Below, piece by piece: positions 1,335 to 11,717 of a stretch of DNA of 13,763 nt. Location of the stretch: assembly GCA_004212155.1 (NCBI GenBank), contig RXIG01000016.1, positions 1-13,763 on the forward strand, given 5' to 3'. The notes beneath the pieces were generated by a model that worked only from the letters and a program-made list of their open reading frames with translations, searched no databases and was not told the origin of the DNA. Both the position numbers and the translations under genes were made by a program. Each line of letters begins with the position of its first letter. The first letter of the stretch is position 1. This DNA comes from an archaeon. GTDB lineage: Archaea > Methanobacteriota_B > Thermococci > Methanofastidiosales > NM3.

Positions 1335-2690
1335 ATGATAATTAGAAAAAAACATGAACTGCTCTCACATGGGGAACGAGACGCCCGCACGGCCGTGCTC
1401 GACATAGCCGATGCGGCGGTCAGCGCAATGAATGGTGAAACTGCGACCCGTGCCCTTGTGCGCCTTGACGGGAATGAGCTTCGTGTGGGTGATGATACGT
1501 TCGACCTTTCACAGTTTCGAAACGTTTATGTCATCGGCGCCGGAAAGGCGACCTATCCCGTTGCCAAGGCGCTCGAGGACGTCCTTGGCGACCGCCTCAC
1601 CGACGGCGTCATCATCGTCAAGCACGGCGAGTCGAGACGACTCTCGCGCATCGATGTCATCGAGGCTGGCCATCCCCTTCCCGATCAGGCCGGCGTCGAG
1701 GGCGTCGAGCGAATGCTCGAGGTGGCCAACATGGCCGGCAAGCTCGATCTTATCTTCTGCATCATCACCGGCGGCGCGTCCGCGCTCATGCCGTTTCCCG
1801 TCGATAGCGTGAGCCTGAAAGATCTTATAACGCTCAATGAGATGCTCCTCTTCTCGGGTGCGCCCATAGAGGACATCAATGCCGTACGCAAGCACGTGTC
1901 TCAGATAAAGGGCGGATTCCTAGCCCAGGTCCTGCATCCCGCTTATATCGTCAATCTCATCATCATCGACGAGGTGGCGGGCAAGCCGTGGGGCCCTACC
2001 ATCCCTGATCCCACCACCTTCTCCGACGCCAAGGCATCGCTTGTGCGCCATGGATTGTGGGACCGTGTGCCGGCGTCCGTTCGTGACTACATTGCTCGCG
2101 GCATGGATGACCCTTCTATGGAAACGCCGTTTCCCGAAGGTGATTCGTTCATTCGCATGTACACGCATGTCATTGGTGACAATACCATGCTCTGTGACGC
2201 TGCGCTCACACGTGCGTTGTCCATGGACCTCAATGCGCTCGTACTCACATCTGAGATCGAAGGGGAAAGCAGCGACATCGGCATCGCGCTTGCATCGATC
2301 GCACGTGAGGTGCGTGCCCGCGGACGTCCCTGTTCGCCACCCTGCGTGCTCATCGCCGGAGGTGAGACCACGGTGACCATCGTGGACGATGCCCACGGGA
2401 AGGGCGGTCCCAATCAGGAGGTTGCGCTTGGCGCTGCCACGAAGCTTGCTGGCACGAGCGGCATCGCGCTCTGTGCCATCGGCACCGACGGGACCGACGG
2501 ACCTACTGAAATCGCCGGTGGTATCGTCGATGGCACTACGATGCAGCGTGCTCTCGATGAGGGCGTCGATATTCACGCCCATCTTGGGCGCCATGACGCT
2601 TCGAGCGCCCTTGTGAAGATGGGCGATGCGATCTATACGTCTCCCACGGAAACGAACGTGATGGACCTTTATCTGGTGGTGATCGTATGA
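1335..2690 (+). CDS. Glycerate 2-kinase-like protein (class II, DUF4147 + MOFRL domains), divergent
   Basis: Motifs GAGKA, EAGHPLPD, TGGASAL, INAVRKHVSQIKGG, GGETTV, GTDGTDGPT, TNVMD. Start at ATG 1335 follows SD-like GGAGTGA (1324-1330), which contains the larA stop. Confidence 0.88.
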   Translation: MIIRKKHELLSHGERDARTAVLDIADAAVSAMNGETATRALVRLDGNELRVGDDTFDLSQFRNVYVIGAGKATYPVAKALEDVLGDRLTDGVIIVKHGESRRLSRIDVIEAGHPLPDQAGVEGVERMLEVANMAGKLDLIFCIITGGASALMPFPVDSVSLKDLITLNEMLLFSGAPIEDINAVRKHVSQIKGGFLAQVLHPAYIVNLIIIDEVAGKPWGPTIPDPTTFSDAKASLVRHGLWDRVPASVRDYIARGMDDPSMETPFPEGDSFIRMYTHVIGDNTMLCDAALTRALSMDLNALVLTSEIEGESSDIGIALASIAREVRARGRPCSPPCVLIAGGETTVTIVDDAHGKGGPNQEVALGAATKLAGTSGIALCAIGTDGTDGPTEIAGGIVDGTTMQRALDEGVDIHAHLGRHDASSALVKMGDAIYTSPTETNVMDLYLVVIV

Positions 2691-3982
2691 ACGAATATGA
2701 ATGGGACGGTGCGTGCATACGTGACGTGTGTGCACGGGAAGTGCTCGACTGTCGAGGAGAGCCCACGGTCGAGGTGGACGTCATTACCGAGGCCGGCATC
2801 ATAGGCAGGGCCGATGTGCCATGCGGCCGTTCGCGTGGAAAGCACGAGGCAGTGGAGCTACGCGACGGCGACGACCGCTACCACGGCCGCGGCGTGATGC
2901 GGGCCGTACGCAACGTGAACACCACGATAGCCCCCTTGTTGAAGGGAAAGAACGCCTCGGACCAGCGCACGGTAGATACGCTCATGCGCGACCTTGACGA
3001 CTCACCGGACAAGTCCTCGCTTGGTGCCAACGCCATGCTTGGCGTCTCGCTCGCTGCTGCCAGGGCGGCCGCAGAGTCGCACGGCCTGCCGCTCTACAGG
3101 TACCTTGGCGGGGCCACTGCCCACATCATGCCTGTGCCCGTTCTCGACATGATCGAGGGAGGGCTTCTCGCATCGACAGACCTCGACTTTCAGGAACACC
3201 AGGTCATGCCTGTCGGCGCGCCAACGTTCTCTGAAGCGATCCGCATGGGCATGGAGGTCTACCACGAGTTGGGCACGATCCTCGAACGAACGTATGGCAA
3301 CCAGGCCCGAAACGTCGGTGACGAAGGGGGATACACGCCGCCCGGTATGAACGATCCGCGCGATGCGTTCGATGCTGAGCTTGCTGCCATCGAGGAATGC
3401 GGGTATGAAAAGGAGTTCGTGCTCTCACTCGATTGCGCCGCGAGCCACTTCTATGATGTAGATATGGGCACCTACACGTTCATGGGAAAGGCGACCACGC
3501 GCGAGGGCATGATCGAGTTCTACGAGGACCTCGCATCCACCTATCCTCTTGCGTCGATGGAGGATCCACTTTATGAGGATGACTTCGAGGGGTACACGAT
3601 GCTCACGGAAGCCCTCGATGTGCAGATAGTGGGCGACGACCTCTTTGCCACCAATCCACGACGTGTGCAGGAGGGTATCGACAGGCATGCGGCAACAGCG
3701 CTGCTGTTCAAGGCGAATCAGATCGGAACGGTGAGCGAGGCATTCGATGTCGCCTCATGTGCATACCGCGGCGGCCTTGCGATACAGGTGTCGGAACGGT
3801 CGGGCCAGACGGAGGACACGTGGCTTGCAGATATCGCTGTCGCACTCGATGCGGGCCAGATCAAGACGGGTGTCACACGCAGCGAGCGCACGGCTCAGTA
3901 CAATAGATTATTGCGTATAGAAGAAGGTGACCCGTTGGTGAGGTATGCAGGCAGAGGGTATCGAAATCCCTTTAGATTCTAG
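2687..3982 (+). CDS. eno: Enolase (phosphopyruvate hydratase) family protein, divergent paralogue
   Basis: REVLDCRGEPTVEV, EAVELRD, LGANAMLGVS, VGDEGG, LDCAAS, EDP, IVGDDLFATN, KANQIGT, GQIKTG, YNRLLRIEE. ATGA overlap with the kinase stop and SD-like GGTGGTGA upstream. Confidence 0.88.
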   Translation: MNEYEWDGACIRDVCAREVLDCRGEPTVEVDVITEAGIIGRADVPCGRSRGKHEAVELRDGDDRYHGRGVMRAVRNVNTTIAPLLKGKNASDQRTVDTLMRDLDDSPDKSSLGANAMLGVSLAAARAAAESHGLPLYRYLGGATAHIMPVPVLDMIEGGLLASTDLDFQEHQVMPVGAPTFSEAIRMGMEVYHELGTILERTYGNQARNVGDEGGYTPPGMNDPRDAFDAELAAIEECGYEKEFVLSLDCAASHFYDVDMGTYTFMGKATTREGMIEFYEDLASTYPLASMEDPLYEDDFEGYTMLTEALDVQIVGDDLFATNPRRVQEGIDRHAATALLFKANQIGTVSEAFDVASCAYRGGLAIQVSERSGQTEDTWLADIAVALDAGQIKTGVTRSERTAQYNRLLRIEEGDPLVRYAGRGYRNPFRF

Positions 3983-3998
3983 CTCTTTCGACACATTT

Positions 3999-4265
3999 TC
4001 ACATCTGCAATCTTCGGGCGTAGTCGTCTCTGATGGCACGTAGCAGTGCGCCATAGGTGACGTTGACAAGCGTCGTCCTTTCACGCACGGTCCGGGCGAT
4101 GAGCGAGAAGTCGATGTCATCTGGCGGCGTCGCCGTTTCAAGGTAGGGCCTGAACGCCTCCTCGAGCCCCTTGACCATGGTGATCTTACCGTCGATTGTG
4201 AGGTAGCTGCCACGTTCGCGCGGTGCTTCGCATCCGTGACATGACCTGTCGTTGCATCCTGACAT
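3999..4265 (-). CDS. Small hypothetical protein (88 aa) with Cys/His-rich N-terminus
   Basis: MSGCNDRSCHGC followed by a plausible globular segment (YLTIDGKITMVKGLEEAF...). Fills the gap convergent to eno. ATG 4265 has GTGA just upstream. Confidence 0.6.
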   Translation of the reverse strand: MSGCNDRSCHGCEAPRERGSYLTIDGKITMVKGLEEAFRPYLETATPPDDIDFSLIARTVRERTTLVNVTYGALLRAIRDDYARRLQM

Positions 4266-4318
4266 GTGTATCACTACTAGACTGTACGAAGTGTGCATTG
4301 AAAAGTATTGTGTAAACG

Positions 4319-4353
4319 AAAAAGAGAAAAAATATGAGCGACATGCGTCGCTC
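4319..4353 (-). terminator. Hairpin plus T-tract terminator after aroA'
   Basis: Minus strand GAGCGAC-GCAT-GTCGCTC (7-bp stem) followed by ATATTTTTTCTCTTTTT, starting just after the stop at 4362. Confidence 0.7.
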
Positions 4354-4361
4354 GTGTCGTG

Positions 4362-5177
4362 TTACATGATGTAGCACGATGAACTCTGGTCCTTCCAACT
4401 GAGCATATCCATTGCCTCGTCGACGCTTGCGTTGCCGACGACGATGGCACGAAGTGCCCTGACGATCCCCGACGGGTTATCATGTTGAAATGCGTTCCTG
4501 CCAAGGGAGACGCCCATGGCGCCGGCCTCCATGGCCCCATGGACCATCGTGAGCAGTTCCCTGTCGTTTGCGCATTTCGGTCCGCCCGCGATGACGATGG
4601 GGACCGGACATCCGCGCACGACGTCCTTGAACGTGTCGACAGAGCCGGTGTAGTTGGTCTTGACGATGTCAGCGCCAAGCTCGGCCCCCACGCGGGCGGC
4701 CAGTGAGACCGCTTCGGGGTCGAGTCCGTTGTCGATGTTCTTGCCGCGCGGGTACATCATTGCCAGAAGCGGCATGCCGTGCAGGTCGCACTGCTCGGCT
4801 ATCGAACCGAGCGCCGAGAGCATCTCGGTCTCACCCGGGCTTCCGCCCACGTTGACGTGCACCGAGACAGCCTCAGCTCCGAGGCGCAGTGCCTCGTTGA
4901 CACTTCCGACGATGACCTTGTGGTCGGGGTCGGCGGCGACCTTCGTGCTCGCGGAGAGATGCATTATCATGCCACAGCGCGTTGGTTCGTGGAGATGGCG
5001 TATGATCCCCTTGTGCAACACGACTGCTGACGCTCCACCCTCATCGATGGTGGATACGGTCTTATCCATGTTGGCAAGGCCGGCTATCGGTCCCACGGTC
5101 ACGCCATGGTCCATCGGTATGATCACCGCCTTACCCTTTTCTGTAATGCGGTGCATACGCACCAGCTTCCCATTCAT
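4362..5177 (-). CDS. aroA': 2-amino-3,7-dideoxy-D-threo-hept-6-ulosonate (ADH) synthase, class I aldolase of the DhnA/MJ0400 family
   Basis: [69 protein letters not shown] (Schiff-base Lys), IAGGPK, GRNAFQH. SD GGAGGTG at 5189-5183. The aromatic-rich leader peptide upstream supports the AroA' rather than FBP-aldolase role. Confidence 0.85.
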
Positions 5178-5504
5178 AGCGACACCTCCAGTGTGTCTGC
5201 CAGCAGCCGGGCCGTCTCGCCCTCCGTGGCGTGCAATAGAAGAGCTGTCTTGTTGAGTATCCTGTGCGATACTACGTCCTCGACATCATTGTGTCGTGCC
5301 GGGGAAAAAACATCGTCCTCGGGCCGTGGGCTCCCAAACATGGCGCCCGAGATAAAGACGTTCCCCCCTTTTGTGCTCAATTCCTGTTCCTAGTTTCATG
5401 TGGTTCACCATTGTCGATGGCAACGGCTCTCCAAAATCATGACAGTGCAGCTCGAAAGCATAGTCCATAATCCTGGAGAACCATGCTTTCTACTAATAGT
5501 AGAA
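5178..5504 (-). promoter_or_regulatory. Structured 5' leader / putative attenuator of aroA'
   Basis: Overlapping stems read by eye: 5504-5488; 5490-5478 with 5466-5454; 5484-5466 with 5441-5423; and a long hairpin 5368-5301 containing T6 (5310-5305). Confidence 0.65.
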
Positions 5505-5567
5505 GAAACCAAAGCGATAGCTGGACCCCTCGTTCCCACAGTGCCAAGACATGTTAGAGAGATTCAT
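5493..5567 (-). CDS. Putative aromatic-amino-acid leader peptide MNLSNMSWHCGNEGSSYRFGFFYY (24 aa)
   Basis: ATG 5567 lies 28 nt downstream of TTTATAAA. Seven aromatic codons (1 Trp, 3 Phe, 3 Tyr), six of them in the last eight codons. Ends in tandem TAG TAG. In-frame second ATG at 5552. Too short for the ORF track. Confidence 0.75.
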   Translation of the reverse strand: MNLSNMSWHCGNEGSSYRFGFFYY

Positions 5568-5595
5568 ACTATCAAGACGGAATGTCATTCAAGAG

Positions 5596-5610
5596 TTTAT
5601 AAATGTTTCC
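5596..5610 (-). promoter_or_regulatory. Archaeal BRE/TATA promoter of the leader-aroA' transcript
   Basis: Minus strand GGAAACA-TTTATAAA (TATA 5603-5596), located just downstream of a terminator. Confidence 0.7.
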
Positions 5611-5654
5611 CTGCTGAGGACGTCATAAAATATGGATGTAGTCATGAAAATGAT

Positions 5655-5688
5655 AAAAAAGAGGGACCCGTTTAGGCGTTCGGGTCCC
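5655..5688 (-). terminator. Hairpin plus T-tract terminator ending the lipoprotein operon
   Basis: Minus strand GGGACCCG-N10-CGGGTCCC (8-bp stem, stop codon in the loop) followed by TCTTTTTT. Confidence 0.75.
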
Positions 5689-6418
5689 AGATGGATTCTA
5701 TCTTTGTGACGTCTTCATAAATCGTACCTTCGATGGTGACGGAGAACAGACCGTCCTCGTAGGCGACTATGGCGGAATCCCGTGCATCGATGGGGAACGT
5801 CTCTGTGCCGCCCTCATGATGGATCGCAAACGTCTGGGACTGCGGATAGTAGGCCACCTTCGTGAAGAGCTCGGCCACGGTGAAGTCGTTGTCCTTTTCG
5901 GTGAACTCGCGTATGTCCCTAATGGAGACATAGATCTCGTTGGTGACGTCGCCGGTGATGCCAAGCACCTCGTCCTCAGTGAGGGGCTCGACGGTGACGA
6001 CCTGCTTCATCCAGTTGCAGGCGCATCCGATGTCGACGGCAAGCATCACGGGGCCGTCGTTGTCGCCGAGGCGTTCTCCCTCCCTGTAGAGGGCCAGGAT
6101 GGCCGAGTCTACGTCTGCTCGGTCGAACGAGAGGATGTAGCCGTCCTCTGCGATGAAGTTTATTATCGAGGCGTCTTCCGCTGTGCTGACGTTCGCAAGA
6201 ACGCTCGTCAGGGCGGCACCTGAGTATTCCTCGGTCCCTTCCACAAGCTGCTTCTCGACCGTCTTCTCAGGCATGTCATCGAGATCCTGGTAGGTGAACG
6301 TGGTGGGATTGTCGACTGCGCCAATCACATCGACATCCCACTCTATGCTCTCCTCGCCACCGATGCATCCGCAACAGAGCACTGCGACAACCGCTATGGC
6401 AATGAGTGCACGTTTCAT
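5672..6418 (-). CDS. Lipoprotein with molybdopterin-oxidoreductase-like (sulfite oxidase/MsrP-fold) domain plus degenerate second domain
   Basis: Signal peptide and lipobox (VLCCGC-I). V.G.V..P.TFTYQDL..MP, YSGAAL, FIAEDGY, DGPVML, NWMKQVVTVE. SD AGGTGG upstream. Confidence 0.75.
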   Translation of the reverse strand: MKRALIAIAVVAVLCCGCIGGEESIEWDVDVIGAVDNPTTFTYQDLDDMPEKTVEKQLVEGTEEYSGAALTSVLANVSTAEDASIINFIAEDGYILSFDRADVDSAILALYREGERLGDNDGPVMLAVDIGCACNWMKQVVTVEPLTEDEVLGITGDVTNEIYVSIRDIREFTEKDNDFTVAELFTKVAYYPQSQTFAIHHEGGTETFPIDARDSAIVAYEDGLFSVTIEGTIYEDVTKIESIWDPNA

Positions 6419-7282
6419 CTATCCACCTGTTAAGACCTGTATCTCGACGAGATTGCCTACCCAGTTGCTCTTGGAGAGGCTGGGAGCTATGATGCGAAGG
6501 GGGCCACCCTCTTCCTCTGCAATCTCCTCGCCGCCGGCGTGCCAGGCGATGATAGCATCTGCGAGGTCGGCATATGCCGCTTCCTTGTTGTATCCATCGC
6601 TTGCAAAGAACGTTACCGTGACTGCGTTCTCCACTTCGAGATGTACCATGAGGTCGCTGATCAGGGCACCGCCCCACTCGACATCGTCAGCGGTCACGGT
6701 GGTGTAGTCAAGGGATTGCAGTTCAGAAAGACCGACTTCGGAGGATTGCCCATCGACGCTCACCGCGAGCGAGTACGTTTCCTGGGGTGCCGTGGCGACC
6801 TCTATCCTCACGAGATTCTGGATCCACGTGTTGGCGGGAAGGCCGGGTGCGACGAATCGGATGGGCCCACCGTCCTCTTCGGGGATGGTGTCGCCGTTCT
6901 CGTCGTGCCATGCGAGCATGGCATCCTGGAGCTGAGCGTACTCGAGTTCCTTCTCGTAGCCGTCAAGGGCGACCATGGTGACCATCTGGGCGTCCTCGAC
7001 GCCAATGTGGTCCATGAATCTGTAGAACGAGGTGCCACCCCACTGGGTCTGGATCTCGGCGCCCGTCTTCTTGACCATCGTCGCGGTGATGGTCTCATAT
7101 TCGAGGGACTGTATCTCCGAGAGGCCGACCTCGGTGGGTGTCCCACCATCGACCGATACCACCAGGAAGTAGGTGTCTGGCGGGGCAGTAGTAGTGCTTT
7201 CGGAATCGTCCGAGGAAATGCACCCTGCGACCAGGGCGGTCACAAGGCATAGTGCAAGCAAGATTGGGAGTTTGCGCTGCAT
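6419..7282 (-). CDS. Lipoprotein with two tandem molybdopterin-oxidoreductase-like domains
   Basis: Lipobox LVAGC-I and a Ser/Thr/Pro linker. Two copies of WGG...A.DGY.KE...AWH...GGP(I/L)R..AP...W..NLV.I.V. Confidence 0.8.
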   Translation of the reverse strand: MQRKLPILLALCLVTALVAGCISSDDSESTTTAPPDTYFLVVSVDGGTPTEVGLSEIQSLEYETITATMVKKTGAEIQTQWGGTSFYRFMDHIGVEDAQMVTMVALDGYEKELEYAQLQDAMLAWHDENGDTIPEEDGGPIRFVAPGLPANTWIQNLVRIEVATAPQETYSLAVSVDGQSSEVGLSELQSLDYTTVTADDVEWGGALISDLMVHLEVENAVTVTFFASDGYNKEAAYADLADAIIAWHAGGEEIAEEEGGPLRIIAPSLSKSNWVGNLVEIQVLTGG

Positions 7283-7304
7283 GAACTATACGATGCACCC
7301 TTAT

Positions 7305-7336
7305 TTTATAAACGTTATGTCATATTGAAAATAACG
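7305..7336 (-). promoter_or_regulatory. TATA box with abutting ModE-like operator
   Basis: TTTATAAA at 7305-7312, 22 nt before ATG 7282. Palindrome CGTTAT-N12-ATAACG at 7313-7336, extendable to AAACGTTAT...ATAACGTTT. Confidence 0.75.
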
Positions 7337-7340
7337 TTTC

Positions 7341-8384
7341 TCATTCCTCGATGAGGTTCTTGAGTTGCGCTGGCAGGTTCTCGTAGGCGTCGGTCTCGGG
7401 ATCCATCGTCGGGAGATAGGTCTCCTTGAAGATTGCCCTCCCCTCACCGGCGATGAGGAACTCGACGAAGTCCCTGGCCTCGTCCTCGTGCGGCGCCTCG
7501 AACGGTATCGTGAGGCCGTAGATGGTGGGATGGGCTTTGAACTCGGGCGTTATTGATGCGAATCGCTGGAACGCGAGGCGCACCCGCGCGCTGTGCTCGA
7601 GCTGTGTGAAGTCGTCGTTTCCTAGGTCTATCTGCGAGGGAAGCGGCAGGAATTCGAGCCCGAAGTACTCTGACACGTTCTCGTACTCGAACGCGTAGTC
7701 GATGCCGCCAGTCTCGAGGAGCGAGAGCAGCTGCACGCTGCTGCCGCGAAGCGAGATGCGACCGCCCGACGTTTCGAGGATCTCGGGGATCTTGATGACG
7801 TACTCATCCGGGGTCTCCTCCACGTCGATGGGCGTCGTGAACTGCCCGCCATAGATGTCCTCGAATATCGTCGGGTCATCGTAGTAATCCTCTGCGAGCT
7901 GCACGATCATGAGCGTGCGGTAGCCGCTCGCATCGAATCGTGGGTCGGAAAGGCCGAGCGCCACATCGTCGCGTGAGAATATCTCGTACCAGGTGTCCTG
8001 ATTGATCTCGTCGGCATATGCGCTGTCGGGGCGATAGGCTATGCCGAGGCGATTGGTGGCAAACTGGATATACCAGTCACTGTGCGGCGGATCCCCATAC
8101 ATGAGCAAAGGTATGAGCGAATAATCGGCGACGGCCAGCACGTCGGCGTCACGGCCGAGCTCTGCCACCTGGCGAAGCACCTGTATGCTGCCGTGCCCCT
8201 CGATGAGCACATCGACGTCGGGATGATCTGCCTCGTATGCCTCCTCGATATGGTCCATGGACGCCAGGAGGCTGCCTGCGCAGATCACCGTGAGCGTCGT
8301 GGTCTCGGGACGTGTGGCATACCATATGCCCGATCCGAGCACGAGCACTATGACCGCTATCGCTGCGATGTGTGACCTGTTCAT
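7341..8384 (-). CDS. wtpA: Tungstate/molybdate ABC transporter substrate-binding protein WtpA
   Basis: N-terminal membrane anchor; AGSL, GHGSIQVLRQV, DVLAVADY, FATN, SDPRFDASGYR, IDYAFEY, LPSQIDLG, IYGLTIP. Start at ATG 8384 or GTG 8393. Confidence 0.85.
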   Translation of the reverse strand: MNRSHIAAIAVIVLVLGSGIWYATRPETTTLTVICAGSLLASMDHIEEAYEADHPDVDVLIEGHGSIQVLRQVAELGRDADVLAVADYSLIPLLMYGDPPHSDWYIQFATNRLGIAYRPDSAYADEINQDTWYEIFSRDDVALGLSDPRFDASGYRTLMIVQLAEDYYDDPTIFEDIYGGQFTTPIDVEETPDEYVIKIPEILETSGGRISLRGSSVQLLSLLETGGIDYAFEYENVSEYFGLEFLPLPSQIDLGNDDFTQLEHSARVRLAFQRFASITPEFKAHPTIYGLTIPFEAPHEDEARDFVEFLIAGEGRAIFKETYLPTMDPETDAYENLPAQLKNLIEE

Positions 8385-8394
8385 CTCTATCACG

Positions 8395-8940
8395 TTAGTT
8401 CATGGTGAGTACTTCGATGGTGCTTACGAATCGCACCCACCAGTGGCCGTCGGTGATGGGGCCGTCAGGCCCGATGACGGCGATGCGAAGCGGTCCGCCG
8501 TACTCCTCCGGTATCGATTCGCCGCCCTCCTCGTAGGCGAGGATCATCTGCAGATCGCCTGCCGGCACTTCCCCGCCCTGCTCATTGTAGGTGATGAAGT
8601 CGCCCTCGACGAACTGTCTGTAGGAGAAGGTGACCGAGTAGCCGTCCGGTGCGGTCACGCGTATGGCGCTGTTCTCGGTTATCTCCCTGTCGAGCTCGTA
8701 GAGCGCGGTGAGCGGAACGCCGGTGAACTCCATGGGGAGCGTTATCTGTCCGACGCTGTTTTTCCTGCCGCCCTCGCCCGTGACCGCAGGCATGTCCTTG
8801 AGGTCGTCGAGGGTGAGCGTCTGCGTCTCGTCGCCAACATAAGTGAGCTCCACCGACTCGCCGTCGCCAGTGATGCAGCCGGTCGTAAGTAGCATGGTCG
8901 CCACAAGGGCGATCAGGGGCAATGTGAACCATCTCTTCAT
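8395..8940 (-). CDS. Lipoprotein with a single molybdopterin-oxidoreductase-like domain
   Basis: Lipobox LTTGC-I; LTLDDLKDMP, FTGVPL, VTAPDGYSVTF, MILAYE, GGPLRI, WVRFVSTIEV. Ends immediately before wtpA. Confidence 0.8.
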   Translation of the reverse strand: MKRWFTLPLIALVATMLLTTGCITGDGESVELTYVGDETQTLTLDDLKDMPAVTGEGGRKNSVGQITLPMEFTGVPLTALYELDREITENSAIRVTAPDGYSVTFSYRQFVEGDFITYNEQGGEVPAGDLQMILAYEEGGESIPEEYGGPLRIAVIGPDGPITDGHWWVRFVSTIEVLTMN

Positions 8941-9249: not shown

Positions 9250-10356
9250 TCAGATGAGGAACGTGCCGTTCTCGTAGAAGAGCTCGTCGGCGGCGTAGAC
9301 CTTGCCGCCGTCCTTCATGTCCTTGAGGATGTCAAGGTGTATGGTCGACTCGTTCTTGCCGATGGTAGGCTCCGGCGACATGCCGAGGGCAAGATGGACC
9401 GTGCCGCCCATCTTCTCGTCAAAGAGCATCTCCTTGATGAAGTCCTTAACGCCGTAGTTGGTGCCGATGGCGAGCTCACCAACCCGCCGTGCGCCCTCGT
9501 CTATCGAGATAATCTCGTCAAGGAGCTTCTGTCCCTTGGCAGCCGAGGCCTTGACGACCTCGCCGTCCTTGAACGTGAGGCGAACGTCCTCTATCTCATT
9601 GCCCATGTATATGAGCGGGTAGGTGAATCGGATGGTACCGTTGGCACTGTCCTCCACGGGACAGGTATATACCTCTCCGTCGGGGAAGTTCTTGTGTCCA
9701 TCGCAGTTCACCCATCTCCGTCCCTTCGTGGAGAACGTGATGTCGGTATCCAGGCCGACGTAGCGGATCTCGTCACGTCCGTCGAGCCATGAGCATATGG
9801 TGTCCTGCTGGGCAGAGATGTCCTTCCATGCTTGGATGGGATCGTTCTCGCCGAAGAGGCATGCCGTGTAGACGAATTCCTGGTACTGTAGAAGCGACAT
9901 CGACGCCTCCTGCGCCTGTGCGTCGGTAGGGAAGGCGGTGAGCGCCCACTTGTACTCACCTTTGCGCTCGCGTTCCTGTATCGCCTTTATCGTGTCGGCA
10001 TACGCCTTCTGGTTGCGTGCCAGTTTCGCTGGGTCAACGCGTGAGAATGCCTTCGTGTTCGTCTCGGCGATGAATTGAATCGAGCGGTCCACGTTGCGTA
10101 ACAGGTAATCAATCGATATGTCCTTCTGGTCGAGCTGATCGTCGCTCGCGTATTCATAGAAGATCTCGCGCGCATGGTGCGGCTGCATGTAGAGGATGGG
10201 GTGCGCCCCCTTCCTTAGGACCTCCTTGTAGATCTCAAGCATCGCAGGCTCGGCCTCGGGTGCCCCGGCGATGAGGACTTTCATGCCCTTTTCGACCTCA
10301 GCAGAATAATTGACCATGACGGTCGCAAGCTTTTCAAGATAATCTCCCTTCAACAT
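9250..10356 (-). CDS. Aminopeptidase, family M29 (AmpS/AmpT, thermophilic metalloprotease)
   Basis: FPT.AQAQEA.MSL, NFPDGEVYTCP, GELAIGTN, LFDEKMGGTVHLALG, NESTIHLD. SD GAGGTGA just before ATG 10356. Confidence 0.92.
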   Translation of the reverse strand: MLKGDYLEKLATVMVNYSAEVEKGMKVLIAGAPEAEPAMLEIYKEVLRKGAHPILYMQPHHAREIFYEYASDDQLDQKDISIDYLLRNVDRSIQFIAETNTKAFSRVDPAKLARNQKAYADTIKAIQERERKGEYKWALTAFPTDAQAQEASMSLLQYQEFVYTACLFGENDPIQAWKDISAQQDTICSWLDGRDEIRYVGLDTDITFSTKGRRWVNCDGHKNFPDGEVYTCPVEDSANGTIRFTYPLIYMGNEIEDVRLTFKDGEVVKASAAKGQKLLDEIISIDEGARRVGELAIGTNYGVKDFIKEMLFDEKMGGTVHLALGMSPEPTIGKNESTIHLDILKDMKDGGKVYAADELFYENGTFLI

Positions 10357-10421
10357 ATCACCTCTTGGTTTGTGTGTAGGTATATACCAACCACTATGAT
10401 ACATTTTTCGTTGCGGGTACC

Positions 10422-11717
10422 CTATATGTGTTTCCTTGAATAGTTGAGGCTGGCCCTTGGATTCATTGCCACGGCCTGACGAACGACCTCTTGGTCGTCC
10501 CTGGCGAGCTCGTCAAGGACATGCCGGGGCGTGTTCGGATTGCGAGCTACGGAACGCCGCACGCACGTGACGGGATCCTTCCCAAGGTGCTCGAGAACAT
10601 CCGCCTGAGCATGTGGATTCAGAGCAACGGAAAGCCGTACCTCCCCCTCCTTGTCGTGTGCCAGCCGCTCGAGGACCGGTGGTGGAGCATCGGGATGCAG
10701 CGCTATGAATCCCTTCATGTCCCGCTCCCACGGCCTGGTCTCGTAGCGCTCCAGGGCGTTTTCAAGGGCCGTTGGGGTTGCATGGGGGTTTAACACGACC
10801 AAATGCCGTACGTTCGTGTCAGGGTCTGTTGAGAGGGCCTCGAGGATGTGCGCGGGCGTTTTGGCGTTACTGGCCACAGCCCCCCGTACCATGTGATTCT
10901 CGTCATTCGAAAGCGCCTCGAGGATCGTCTCTGGTGTCTTTGGATTAGAAGCGACCAGCTGCCTCATGCGCGGGTCTGCATCATGCGCATGCTCATCAAG
11001 GACCGAGGTAGGGACGTCCGGATGCTGCAGGACGTCCTTGAGGACTTCATCGTCGCAGCAAAGCGCGATTTTTTCAAGTGTGGCCGGTTGGACATTGGGA
11101 TTTGATATCACCGTGAAGAGGACGTCCCTGTCGGCTACACGGGCATACTCATCGAGCACCTCGGGGGGCACATGCGGATTTGATACCACTGATAACTGCA
11201 CATCCCTGTCAGCATCATGTGCATGCATGATAAGGATGTCTATTGGCACGTGCGGGTTGCTGATGACCGACAGACGCACATCGCAGTCATCGTCTTGCAC
11301 AAGCTCCTTGAGCACCGAAGGCGGCGTCGAGGGGTTCAGGGCAACAGACATCCGTATACCCTTTTCAGTGCTTCGCGAGAGCTTCTCAAGTATCTCAACG
11401 GGTGTTGAGGGTTCGCATGCCTTGAACCAGTATCGTTGCTCGATACTAGCGTTGGTGCCTCTGAGCGTACGTTTGAGTTTTTTGCGAAGTTCGAGCCTTC
11501 CCAGCATACCACCGACGAGAAAGAATGCGCCAAGATCCATAAATGTTGTGGCTTCCTTTTCCTGGAAAAGGAGAACGATAAGTGCCAATAGACACATGAT
11601 AAAAAGCTCCACAGGTGTGTGGTCGTCCTGTGTCCCTTCGACAGCCCATGGTACAGGATGGCAGTTTTGGATATCGTTGTTTGGCACATCTTGAACTTCT
11701 TCAGGCATGATATTCAT
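10422..11717 (-). CDS. Membrane-anchored leucine-rich-repeat-variant/HEAT-like repeat protein
   Basis: Two N-terminal hydrophobic segments, then about 12 repeats of 26 aa with consensus NPxxPxxxLxxLAxDxDxxVRxxVAx. Start codon uncertain. Confidence 0.8.
   Translation of the reverse strand: MNIMPEEVQDVPNNDIQNCHPVPWAVEGTQDDHTPVELFIMCLLALIVLLFQEKEATTFMDLGAFFLVGGMLGRLELRKKLKRTLRGTNASIEQRYWFKACEPSTPVEILEKLSRSTEKGIRMSVALNPSTPPSVLKELVQDDDCDVRLSVISNPHVPIDILIMHAHDADRDVQLSVVSNPHVPPEVLDEYARVADRDVLFTVISNPNVQPATLEKIALCCDDEVLKDVLQHPDVPTSVLDEHAHDADPRMRQLVASNPKTPETILEALSNDENHMVRGAVASNAKTPAHILEALSTDPDTNVRHLVVLNPHATPTALENALERYETRPWERDMKGFIALHPDAPPPVLERLAHDKEGEVRLSVALNPHAQADVLEHLGKDPVTCVRRSVARNPNTPRHVLDELARDDQEVVRQAVAMNPRASLNYSRKHI

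Follow-up and report, generated by a model that had tools for sequence, protein, structure and literature searches.

The stretch of DNA analysed here, called the window throughout, is a contig of 13,763 nucleotides (nt; GenBank RXIG01000016.1) from a Methanofastidiosales archaeon, and the element in question is the leader of its aroA' gene. The source assembly (GCA_004212155.1) comprises 1.49 Mb in 28 contigs and is 90% complete; we refer to this genome as G000 and to the window as its contig C18. Positions 5177 to 4362 of the minus strand encode aroA', the gene for 2-amino-3,7-dideoxy-D-threo-hept-6-ulosonate (ADH) synthase. Its 271-amino-acid product scored 333.2 bits against the ADH synthase model TIGR01949 (cut-off 299.45) and matched Pfam DeoC. 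Upstream on the same strand we observed a short open reading frame (ORF), ORF1 (5567 to 5493), which has its ATG at 5567–5565, 24 codons, a TAG stop at 5495–5493 and a second TAG at 5492–5490. ORF1 translates as MNLSNMSWHCGNEGSSYRFGFFYY; seven of its 24 codons are aromatic, six of them within the last eight. The next long gene is aroA', which starts 315 nt past the first stop of ORF1. An earlier sequence-only reading of this DNA had picked out the near-leaderless ORF with its TATA box, double stop and 3' cluster of aromatic codons, and had named the gene 315 nt beyond it as aroA'. All of this is present as described, and the profile match confirms the gene. That reading had also taken the 315 nt for structured RNA. 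As a non-coding spacer, this did not hold up: the spacer contains two further conserved reading frames, ORF2 and ORF3.

Orthologues of aroA' (56–98% identity) were found in seven other genomes of the order. Among 133 genomes of the phylum, seven passed the ADH synthase cut-off, all belonging to the Methanofastidiosales-like family f1 or to family f4; in G001 aroA' is truncated by the contig end and falls below the threshold. We compared ten f1 leaders, eight distinct ones of aroA' and two of aroB', to which f4 adds two for a total of 12. A leaderless ORF with a tail of Phe, Tyr and Trp (F/Y/W) precedes the gene in 8/8 aroA' and 2/2 aroB' leaders of f1 and in 2/2 leaders of f4, so that the expectation of a conserved aromatic-rich ORF upstream of aroA' in related archaea was borne out. 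In five f1 relatives, a near-leaderless ORF behind a TATA box ends in ...YRFGFFYY, ...RSFYCFYFSY, ...RSFDWFYFSY, ...RSFDWFYFVY or ...YSCSWFFFSF, and two metagenome contigs (L060 and L069) add the tails ...YSSCSWFFFSF and ...YSSSWFFFSF. In genomes G002 to G005, aroB' lies directly 3' of aroA'. In G000 and G001 the two genes are found on separate contigs, each with its own leader, and this duplication of the leader on splitting of the operon is good evidence for a functional cis element. The second leader of G000 is located on contig C10, where the ORF MDMKQNPSSHRFTSMDFSFGSFSYTFY, with a TATA box ahead, precedes an operon-like row of eight genes (C10:96338–103407; L111). These encode aroB' (3-dehydroquinate synthase II-like), aroD, aroE, a bacterial-type shikimate kinase, 5-enolpyruvylshikimate-3-phosphate synthase, chorismate synthase, prephenate dehydratase and prephenate dehydrogenase. 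Among these eight genes we saw no chorismate mutase as a gene of its own.

ORF1 is preceded by a putative promoter (5611 to 5596, minus strand) that agrees with the archaeal consensus and consists of GGGAAAC, resembling a transcription factor B recognition element (BRE), and the TATA box TTTATAAA (5603–5596). A purine-rich stretch together with TTTATAAA, TTTTTAAA or TTTAAATA occupies the same position in 10/10 f1 leaders. The TATA box stands 36 nt ahead of the ORF1 ATG, and the usual archaeal spacing between TATA box and transcription start would leave ORF1 a 5' untranslated region of ~6–8 nt. The palindrome GAATGACATTC (5590 to 5580, minus strand), which emerged from the alignment of aroA' leaders, falls between the TATA box and the point where the transcript is predicted to begin. 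Its GAAT-N3/4-ATTC-like pattern aligns among aroA' leaders and was not seen in aroB' or f4 leaders; the palindrome is possibly a transcription-factor operator, additional to the translational switch proposed below. We then asked how unusual ORF1 is within its own genome. At least five aromatics in the last ten residues were found in 38 of 25,002 ATG-initiated ORFs of 12–45 codons (23 with five, 13 with six and two with eight), and only two of the 38 have both a TATA box ahead of them and a gene of the aromatic pathway downstream: those before aroA' and aroB'. The other aromatic-tailed ORFs, with no aromatic-pathway gene downstream, were set aside. Among 182 short ORFs located 24–39 nt behind a TATA-like box, ORF1 and the C10 ORF are the two most aromatic.

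The best-conserved element of the leader is not ORF1. In an alignment of the eight aroA' leaders it is a block of 21 nt, ACAAGGGGGGAACGYCUUUAU, located ~200 nt further downstream. Seventeen of its positions are invariant in 8/8 aroA' leaders, whose aroA' proteins are 63–69% identical. Apart from one changed position, the aroB' leader on the other contig has the block too; nowhere else in the genome is there a convincing copy. The block lies within ORF2 (5399 to 5286, minus strand), a frame of 37 codons that reads MKLGTGIEHKRGERLYLGRHVWEPTARGRCFFPGTTQ and stops 106 nt before aroA'. A Shine-Dalgarno (SD)-like GGTGA (5409–5405) stands 5 nt ahead of the ORF2 ATG and is kept in relatives: GGTGA, GGTGG, GGAGG or AGGAG is found 5–9 nt ahead of the ATG, and an ORF2 of 21–37 codons follows, in 10/10 leaders. 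In the frame of ORF2, the zero frame in what follows, the block reads AGG GGG GAA CGY CUU UAU C. It comprises the SD-like purine run AGGGGGG (5369–5363), 5 nt ahead of the slippery codon, and the heptamer CUU_UAU_C (5357–5351), at which a +1 shift may take place. CTT_TAT is in the ORF2 frame in 10/10 leaders, and the zero frame of the aro leaders ends 12–27 codons after the start of the G-run. The genome carries a gene for tRNA-Leu(GAG) and a single one for tRNA-Tyr(GUA). From the G-block to a downstream U-tract (UUUUCC) we measured 61, 61, 31, 52, 52, 46, 46, 46, 28 and 28 nt in the ten leaders, each of which is 1 mod 3. Insertions and deletions between these two elements are always triplets, which is a coding signature.

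Outside these leaders the motif scans, which covered genome contigs (17 stretches) and metagenome contigs (31 stretches), returned mostly chance matches, in bacteria. The real ones came from f1 genomes, duplicate copies of f1 leaders, L060 and L069. A match with one mismatch in G012 (L037, nt 25–1692) lies inside a 555-amino-acid f4 gene, where it is read as ...TRRGGRLSV... in an unrelated context, and is probably a coincidence. A copy of the G-block with two mismatches on the minus strand of contig C7 of G000 (C7:88150–88220) was judged to be chance, with no aromatic-pathway gene downstream. Behind it come a T-rich stretch, a TATA-like box, the short ORF MCRLRNAAWFFFGFSIR and a gene for 248 amino acids, the start of which is, at a guess, presumably reminiscent of diphthine synthase.

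ORF3 (5356 to 5174, minus strand) is the +1 frame relative to ORF2 and stays open from the shift site to a TGA (5176–5174) that overlaps the aroA' start codon as ATGA. Internal stops are absent from the +1 frame in 10/10 leaders, compared to 34 and 29 stops in frames 0 and +2 over the same stretch. The open lengths are 64, 64, 121, 60, 59, 57, 55, 54, 92 and 92 codons, and mononucleotide shuffles gave an open +1 frame with a probability of 0.001–0.12 per leader. The frame ends in an ATGA overlap with the aroA' or aroB' start in 9/10 leaders and, in M060, in a TAA that abuts a TTG start. Upstream, each of the eight aroA' leaders has a stop that closes the frame 3–9 codons before the G-run; in 5/8 this is the TGA of ORF2's own ATGA, and in 7/8 no ATG, GTG or TTG lies between the closing stop and the G-run. 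The one TTG occurs in G000, where its 98%-identical sister G001 has TTA. In G002 and G003, ORF3 is without an ATG along its whole length (121 and 59 codons). Substitutions also point to this frame: past the ORF2 stop, the codons that differ between G000 and G001 are 5:1 synonymous to non-synonymous in the ORF3 frame and 0:6 and 0:5 in the other two, and for G003 and G005 the ratios are 8:16 against 2:20 and 2:22. Pfam and NCBIfam searches with ORF3 (68 amino acids) and with a 60-amino-acid ORF returned no family match.

The anatomy of the leader and its conservation are solid. At a probability of roughly two in three, we propose that the aroA' leader is a translated three-frame switch that senses aminoacyl-tRNA by +1 frameshifting and is translationally coupled to the pathway gene; from the sequences we infer that the ribosome slips, that slipping depends on charged tRNA and that aroA' is coupled to it. 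Transcription would start a few bases ahead of the leaderless ORF1. ORF2 would initiate from its own SD ~90 nt downstream of ORF1, and its ribosomes would reach the cassette AGGGGGG-AACGU-CUU_UAU_C after 14 codons. When Tyr-tRNA is plentiful, UAU would be decoded and translation would end at the ORF2 stop, 106 nt before aroA', which would then be poorly translated and perhaps prematurely terminated or unprotected. When Tyr-tRNA is scarce, the ribosome would pause with peptidyl-tRNA-Leu on CUU and slip +1 to UUU, helped by the G-run behind it, with AUC as the next codon. The shifted ribosome would read ORF3 through the hairpin and U-tract to the UGA that overlaps the aroA' AUG, and at the ATGA overlap it would reinitiate or open the aroA' ribosome-binding site. 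The SD of aroA', GGAGGTG (5189–5183, minus strand), lies partly within a small predicted hairpin, and the region from -14 to -5 has a mean unpaired probability of 0.20–0.53 across the ten leaders in predicted folds. Since the codon waiting in the ribosomal A site is that of Tyr, an end product of the pathway, scarce Tyr-tRNA would raise the share of ribosomes that take the +1 frame and end on the aroA' start. The proposed direction of regulation is the sensible one.

ORF1 is a conserved companion of this cassette. It probably senses Phe, Tyr and Trp through ribosome stalling and thereby influences the loading of ORF2, which is the least supported step. In predicted folds, the 5' end of the transcript, including the ORF1 AUG, pairs with the middle of ORF1 to form a helix, P1, that is compensatory between genera (GAUAGU/AGCUAUC versus GCAGU/AGCUGC). 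Near the ORF2 SD, possible pairing partners of the ORF1 tail are found: it can pair with the conserved AAACCAG block, with the ORF2 start (G002) or with GGAGG (aroB' leaders). The predicted accessibility of the ORF2 SD with versus without a ribosome on ORF1 showed no consistent change. In the aroB' leaders, ORF1 ends in UUU_UAU_UGA and its +1 frame is ORF3 itself, so ORF1 may there be a second entry point.

The sequence-only reading had proposed ribosome-mediated attenuation, and the part of it that stands is that ribosomes read the supply of aromatic aminoacyl-tRNA, which is the best reading of this leader; the hairpin switching of pheL and trpL did not find support. Classical attenuation would have a ribosome stalled on ORF1 remodel the RNA, so that a terminator fails to form and transcription reads through into aroA'. 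The terminator would be hairpin P5 (5368 to 5301, minus strand; inner hairpin P6) with its U-tract, in which the G-run and ACGUC are predicted to pair with GACG...UUUUUUCCCC and a T-run follows at 5310–5305. Several observations speak for such a mechanism. An aromatic-rich leader ORF is kept in 12/12 leaders, in line with the short ORF enriched in end-product codons of trpL and pheL. A stable hairpin, extending from the G-run to UUUUCC or UUUUUU and ending in U4–6, is predicted in 10/10 f1 leaders at -17 to -33 kcal/mol, and its middle stem is compensatory between lineages (CGCC:GGCG, CGUC:GACG and CCGCC:GGCGG). The ORF1 tail (CUGGUUUU) pairs with the AAACCAG block in the minimum-energy folds of 4/10 leaders (G003, G004, G005 and M069). 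However, when we masked the ORF1 tail or stop (ViennaRNA, a thermodynamic and not a kinetic model), P5 remained intact in 9/10 leaders, and duplexes between the ORF1 tail and downstream sequence were no stronger than in shuffles (z -0.5 to +1.8). Mutually exclusive terminator and antiterminator helices set by the position of the ribosome thus did not appear in thermodynamic modelling. The hairpin and U-tract are also located inside two conserved reading frames, ORF2 and ORF3, 110–330 nt before the gene, and most U-tracts have only four U. Archaeal intrinsic termination requires no hairpin, which counts against attenuation as well. Attenuation leaves the invariant G-block, the triplet indels and the open +1 frame that ends on the gene start unexplained. 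We consider it unlikely as a replacement for the frameshift switch, alongside which it may operate.

P5 could be a stimulator of the slip through its inner hairpin, a mask that hides the cassette while the RNA is untranslated, or a transcription terminator. For the leader as a whole, RNAalifold (ten sequences, aligned with MAFFT) gave five invariant pairs, none of them covarying, from an alignment that is poor outside the conserved blocks. An Rfam scan of positions 4900–5900 with E-values up to 10 returned two chance-level matches (15.9 and 14.6 bits against gathering scores of 50 and 55).

The cassette has counterparts in family f4 and at the trp operon. The f4 operon is asd-aroA'-aroB', and before asd a TATA box is followed by a short ORF ending in ...RRDLFYW or ...RRDLFYC. 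Its cassette reads AGA AGG GAU UUA UUU UAY, that is, AAGGG-N5-UUU_UAY, and TTT_T is found in 3/3 f4 cassettes. In L009 (genome G015, nt 277–490), the 23-nt stretch GAAGGGATTTATTTTATTGTT occurs twice before asd, 67 nt apart. From the first copy, the +1 frame leads into the second in phase; the +1 frame of that second copy closes with a UGA overlapping the asd ATG. Two successive +1 steps link the leader ATG to the asd start codon.

The trp operon of G000, trpC-D-E-G-F-B-A, lies on contig C21 with its leader at C21:24780–24865 (L117/L118). There, the sequence ATG CAT TCA ACA CGT GGT GGT GTA TTT TGG begins 29 nt behind a TATA box. The zero frame ends after 38 codons, and the +1 frame from UUU_U is trpC; its product contains IIAEVK, which we take to be a motif typical of the trpC enzyme. 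A leaderless ORF of 13–38 codons with the pattern M-x5-7-GG(S/V)FW precedes trpC in 4/4 f1 genomes with a trpC match (L117/L118, L119, L120 and L121), the zero frames of the other three being MKQTNSGGSFWPV, MSLKCKGGSFWLRPHD and MSTDTQGGSFWRK... up to their stops. These three leaders share an identical AGGTGGTTCATTTTGGC, although their trpC proteins have only 46–52% identity with the G000 protein. Two of them have stops that close the trpC frame 8–9 codons upstream. The zero frame ends 2–29 codons past the Trp codon and is not conserved, and the +1 frame from UUU_U is trpC in 4/4. The SD-like sequence is AGGUGGU followed by 3 nt (UCA) in 3/4 leaders and GGUGGUG followed by 2 nt in G000. In families f2 and f3, trpC has an ordinary ATG start and is without the cassette.

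The codon after the slippery U-run is Tyr before aro, phe and tyr genes and Trp before trp, so the waiting codon matches the pathway, a match that we cannot explain by promoters, operators or chance. On these sequences, and with slightly less assurance than for the aroA' leader by itself, we favour the view that a family of aminoacyl-tRNA-sensing +1 switches, each with a cognate sense codon in the A site, regulates the aromatic genes: Tyr for the aroA' and the aroB'-to-tyrA operons, Trp for trp. The same cassette would control the aroB'-aroD-aroE-aroK-aroA-aroC-pheA-tyrA operon, and its trp counterpart, SD-like-N3-UUU_UGG, in which a Trp codon takes the A site, would direct ribosomes into the trpC frame. 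Cognate leaders at other amino-acid operons of this genome are the aroB' leader and the trp cassette. Scans of the genome, which see only TATA-plus-ATG ORFs with CUU or UUU slippery codons, revealed no His-, Leu- or Thr-type leaders and no further leaderless frameshift candidates; one extra match, at C20:57076, looks like chance.

A rather improbable alternative is that no recoding takes place. ORF2 and ORF3 would then be started separately, ORF3 at a non-canonical or internal codon and trpC at GTG, and the G-block would be a protein site, an internal promoter or a ligand-binding RNA motif. In its favour, the G-block (GGGAAC-N3-TTTATC) resembles the BRE/TATA arrangement of the main promoter, and the lack of an Rfam match to the region leaves room for a novel RNA element. 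Possible starts also exist, namely a GTG conserved in the trpC frame, ATGs within the +1 frames of the aroB' leaders and of the f4 leader L007, and internal ATGs in ORF3 of 6/8 aroA' leaders. Yet the ORF3 of G002 and that of G003 are open without any ATG, and no start codon precedes the G-run in 7/8 aroA' leaders. The conserved trpC-frame GTG has no SD, and a GTG start would leave the Trp codon unexplained. A promoter or operator would not enforce an open frame, triplet indels or a stop-start overlap, and the choice of Tyr (aro) versus Trp (trp) after the slippery U-run is unexplained without recoding. Polymerase slippage typically needs A or T runs of nine or more, and although homopolymer runs lie at or near the site in all leaders, they are only 6–7 G or 3–4 U here. 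That RNA polymerase joins ORF2 to ORF3 by slipping on the G6–7 run or the U-run, in a share of mRNAs one base shorter, is very improbable: this is a known route to a change of frame (PMC5009743), but it explains neither the conserved CUU_UAU and UUU_UGG phase nor the codon-pathway match, and the trp cassette has no G-run.

Several points weigh against the frameshift switch. The evidence is comparative throughout, and the sole metatranscriptome with the locus (one of the four runs listed, share 0.29; two contigs mapped on 3900–6500) covers only 4518–5068, inside aroA'. The sample is small and related, with ~5–6 independent lineages from a single order. The masking and duplex-energy tests did not account for ORF1. 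ORF3 is without protein-level constraint in the aroB' pair (5:23) and in the group of G004, M060 and M069 (2:18, 2:22 and 3:18). A frame that is open in every leader and encodes a peptide constrained only in part is what would be expected if the passage of the ribosome matters more than the product. The +1 frame of the aroB' leaders is open far upstream and contains ATGs, none of them with an SD. The SD-like run of the aro leaders lies 4–6 nt before the slippery codon, with 4–5 nt behind the G6–7 run in f1 and 5 nt behind AAGGG in f4, not at the 3 nt that are critical in prfB of E. coli, and the assembly contains no 16S gene that would give the anti-SD. In f4, L007 is a weaker case: there is a single copy of the cassette, and the +1 frame there (tail ...VFDCYWRY) contains an ATG of its own and ends 37 nt before asd is reached. 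For trpC, the conserved in-frame GTG inside GGTGGT may be a normal start.

The remainder of the window holds other features. Directly 3' of aroA' lies an ORF of 99 amino acids (3999–4298, minus strand) that converges on the enolase gene (2687–3982, plus strand); a Pfam and NCBIfam search found no family for it. Upstream of the leader, 5672–8940 (minus strand) holds three genes with molybdopterin-binding oxidoreductase domains (248, 287 and 181 amino acids) and a periplasmic solute-binding protein, and the first gene of this row ends in a T-rich stretch at ~5660–5650, just before the aroA' promoter. Further along, a protein of 431 amino acids (10422–11717, minus strand) consists of leucine-rich-repeat-variant (LRV) and HEAT-like repeats and adjoins an M29 aminopeptidase gene (9250–10404).

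To our knowledge, operon-level amino-acid sensing in Archaea is little understood and limited to transcription factors such as TrpY. In the literature we searched, we found neither a leader-peptide attenuator from Archaea nor a frameshift switch by which a biosynthetic operon responds to its own amino acid, and papers on either could exist elsewhere. If true, the switch would be the first hungry-codon frameshift in nature to serve regulation and the first amino-acid-responsive cis-acting translational sensor described in Archaea. It would add a third solution for sensing tRNA charging, beside leader-peptide attenuation and T-boxes, and would mean that the design of prfB had been reused, or had arisen anew, with sense codons taking the role of input. 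A compact cassette of ~25 nt would also be a directly testable example by point mutation, provide an annotation rule for trpC-like genes that seemingly have no start codon and could serve as a portable amino-acid-responsive switch in archaeal genetics.

Among known systems, the trpL, pheL and pheM attenuators likewise place a short ORF rich in end-product codons ahead of biosynthetic genes and use the translating ribosome as the sensor. Here, in contrast, ORF1 is leaderless, two more translated frames would lie between it and the gene, and no terminator/antiterminator alternative could be shown. The frameshifting reported for pheL itself appears incidental, as summarized in a 2016 review (PMC5009743). 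In mycobacteria, leaderless poly-Cys short ORFs are described as amino-acid-responsive operon attenuators (bioRxiv 10.1101/834739); these rely on stalling and have no dedicated slippery site, no SD-like stimulator and no overlap of stop and start codons. In the ermC leader, frameshifted ribosomes induced by ketolides enter the spacer, unfold the mRNA and enable the downstream start (PMC5009743), but the inducer there is a drug and not the supply of aminoacyl-tRNA. The stop-start arrangement has archaeal precedent, as ATGA overlaps are described to mediate translational coupling by termination-reinitiation in archaea (PMC6728339). The same overlap or abutment is seen in the leaders analysed here: ATGA in 9/10, TAA-TTG in M060 and ATGA with asd in L009.

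The closest design is that of prfB, in which peptidyl-tRNA-Leu at a slippery CUUU, with an SD 3 nt upstream, re-pairs on UUU ahead of a slow A-site codon (PMC10798248). The two systems share a short zero-frame ORF, a slippery CUU_U and an SD-like purine run, in both a slow A-site codon would choose between the short ORF and the +1 frame, and the trp cassette has the 3-nt SD spacing in 3/4 leaders. A prfB-type slippery codon would occupy the ribosomal P site in 10/10 f1 aro leaders (CUU_U), 3/3 f4 cassettes and 4/4 trp leaders (both UUU_U). The short zero frame with a productive +1 frame that lacks a start of its own is likewise found here: the +1 frame is open in 10/10 leaders, is without its own start in 7/8 aroA' leaders and is trpC itself in the trp leaders. 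The waiting codon differs. In prfB it is a UGA stop codon recognized by RF2, the protein that the gene itself encodes, whereas here it is a sense codon for a pathway end product, UAU/UAC (Tyr) in aro or UGG (Trp) in trp, which would be slow only if charged tRNA is scarce. The A-site sense codon makes this a different sensor, and we do not file it as a member of the prfB family. The host is archaeal here and bacterial there, the SD-like run of the aro leaders is 4–6 nt away, and the aro +1 frame is a fast-evolving spacer peptide that ends on the enzyme's start codon, not the enzyme itself.

At the yeast Ty1 site CUU_AGG_C, a scarce tRNA slows the A site and drives the +1 slip (PMC5009743). Ty1 and the hungry-codon shifting of Gallant share with our cassette the CUU_NNN_C heptamer and a +1 shift driven by scarce A-site aminoacyl-tRNA. 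The starvation-induced form has been described as error-like, and frameshifting at Trp codons of human cancer cells on tryptophan depletion is likewise reported as mistranslation (PMC13751296, PMC11425274). For hungry-codon shifting that serves a function specific to starvation, the verdict of the 2016 review is "no examples are known" (PMC5009743). In Ty1, the tRNA is constitutively rare and gives a set ratio of products; in the aro and trp leaders, by contrast, the shift would itself be what regulates the cognate pathway.

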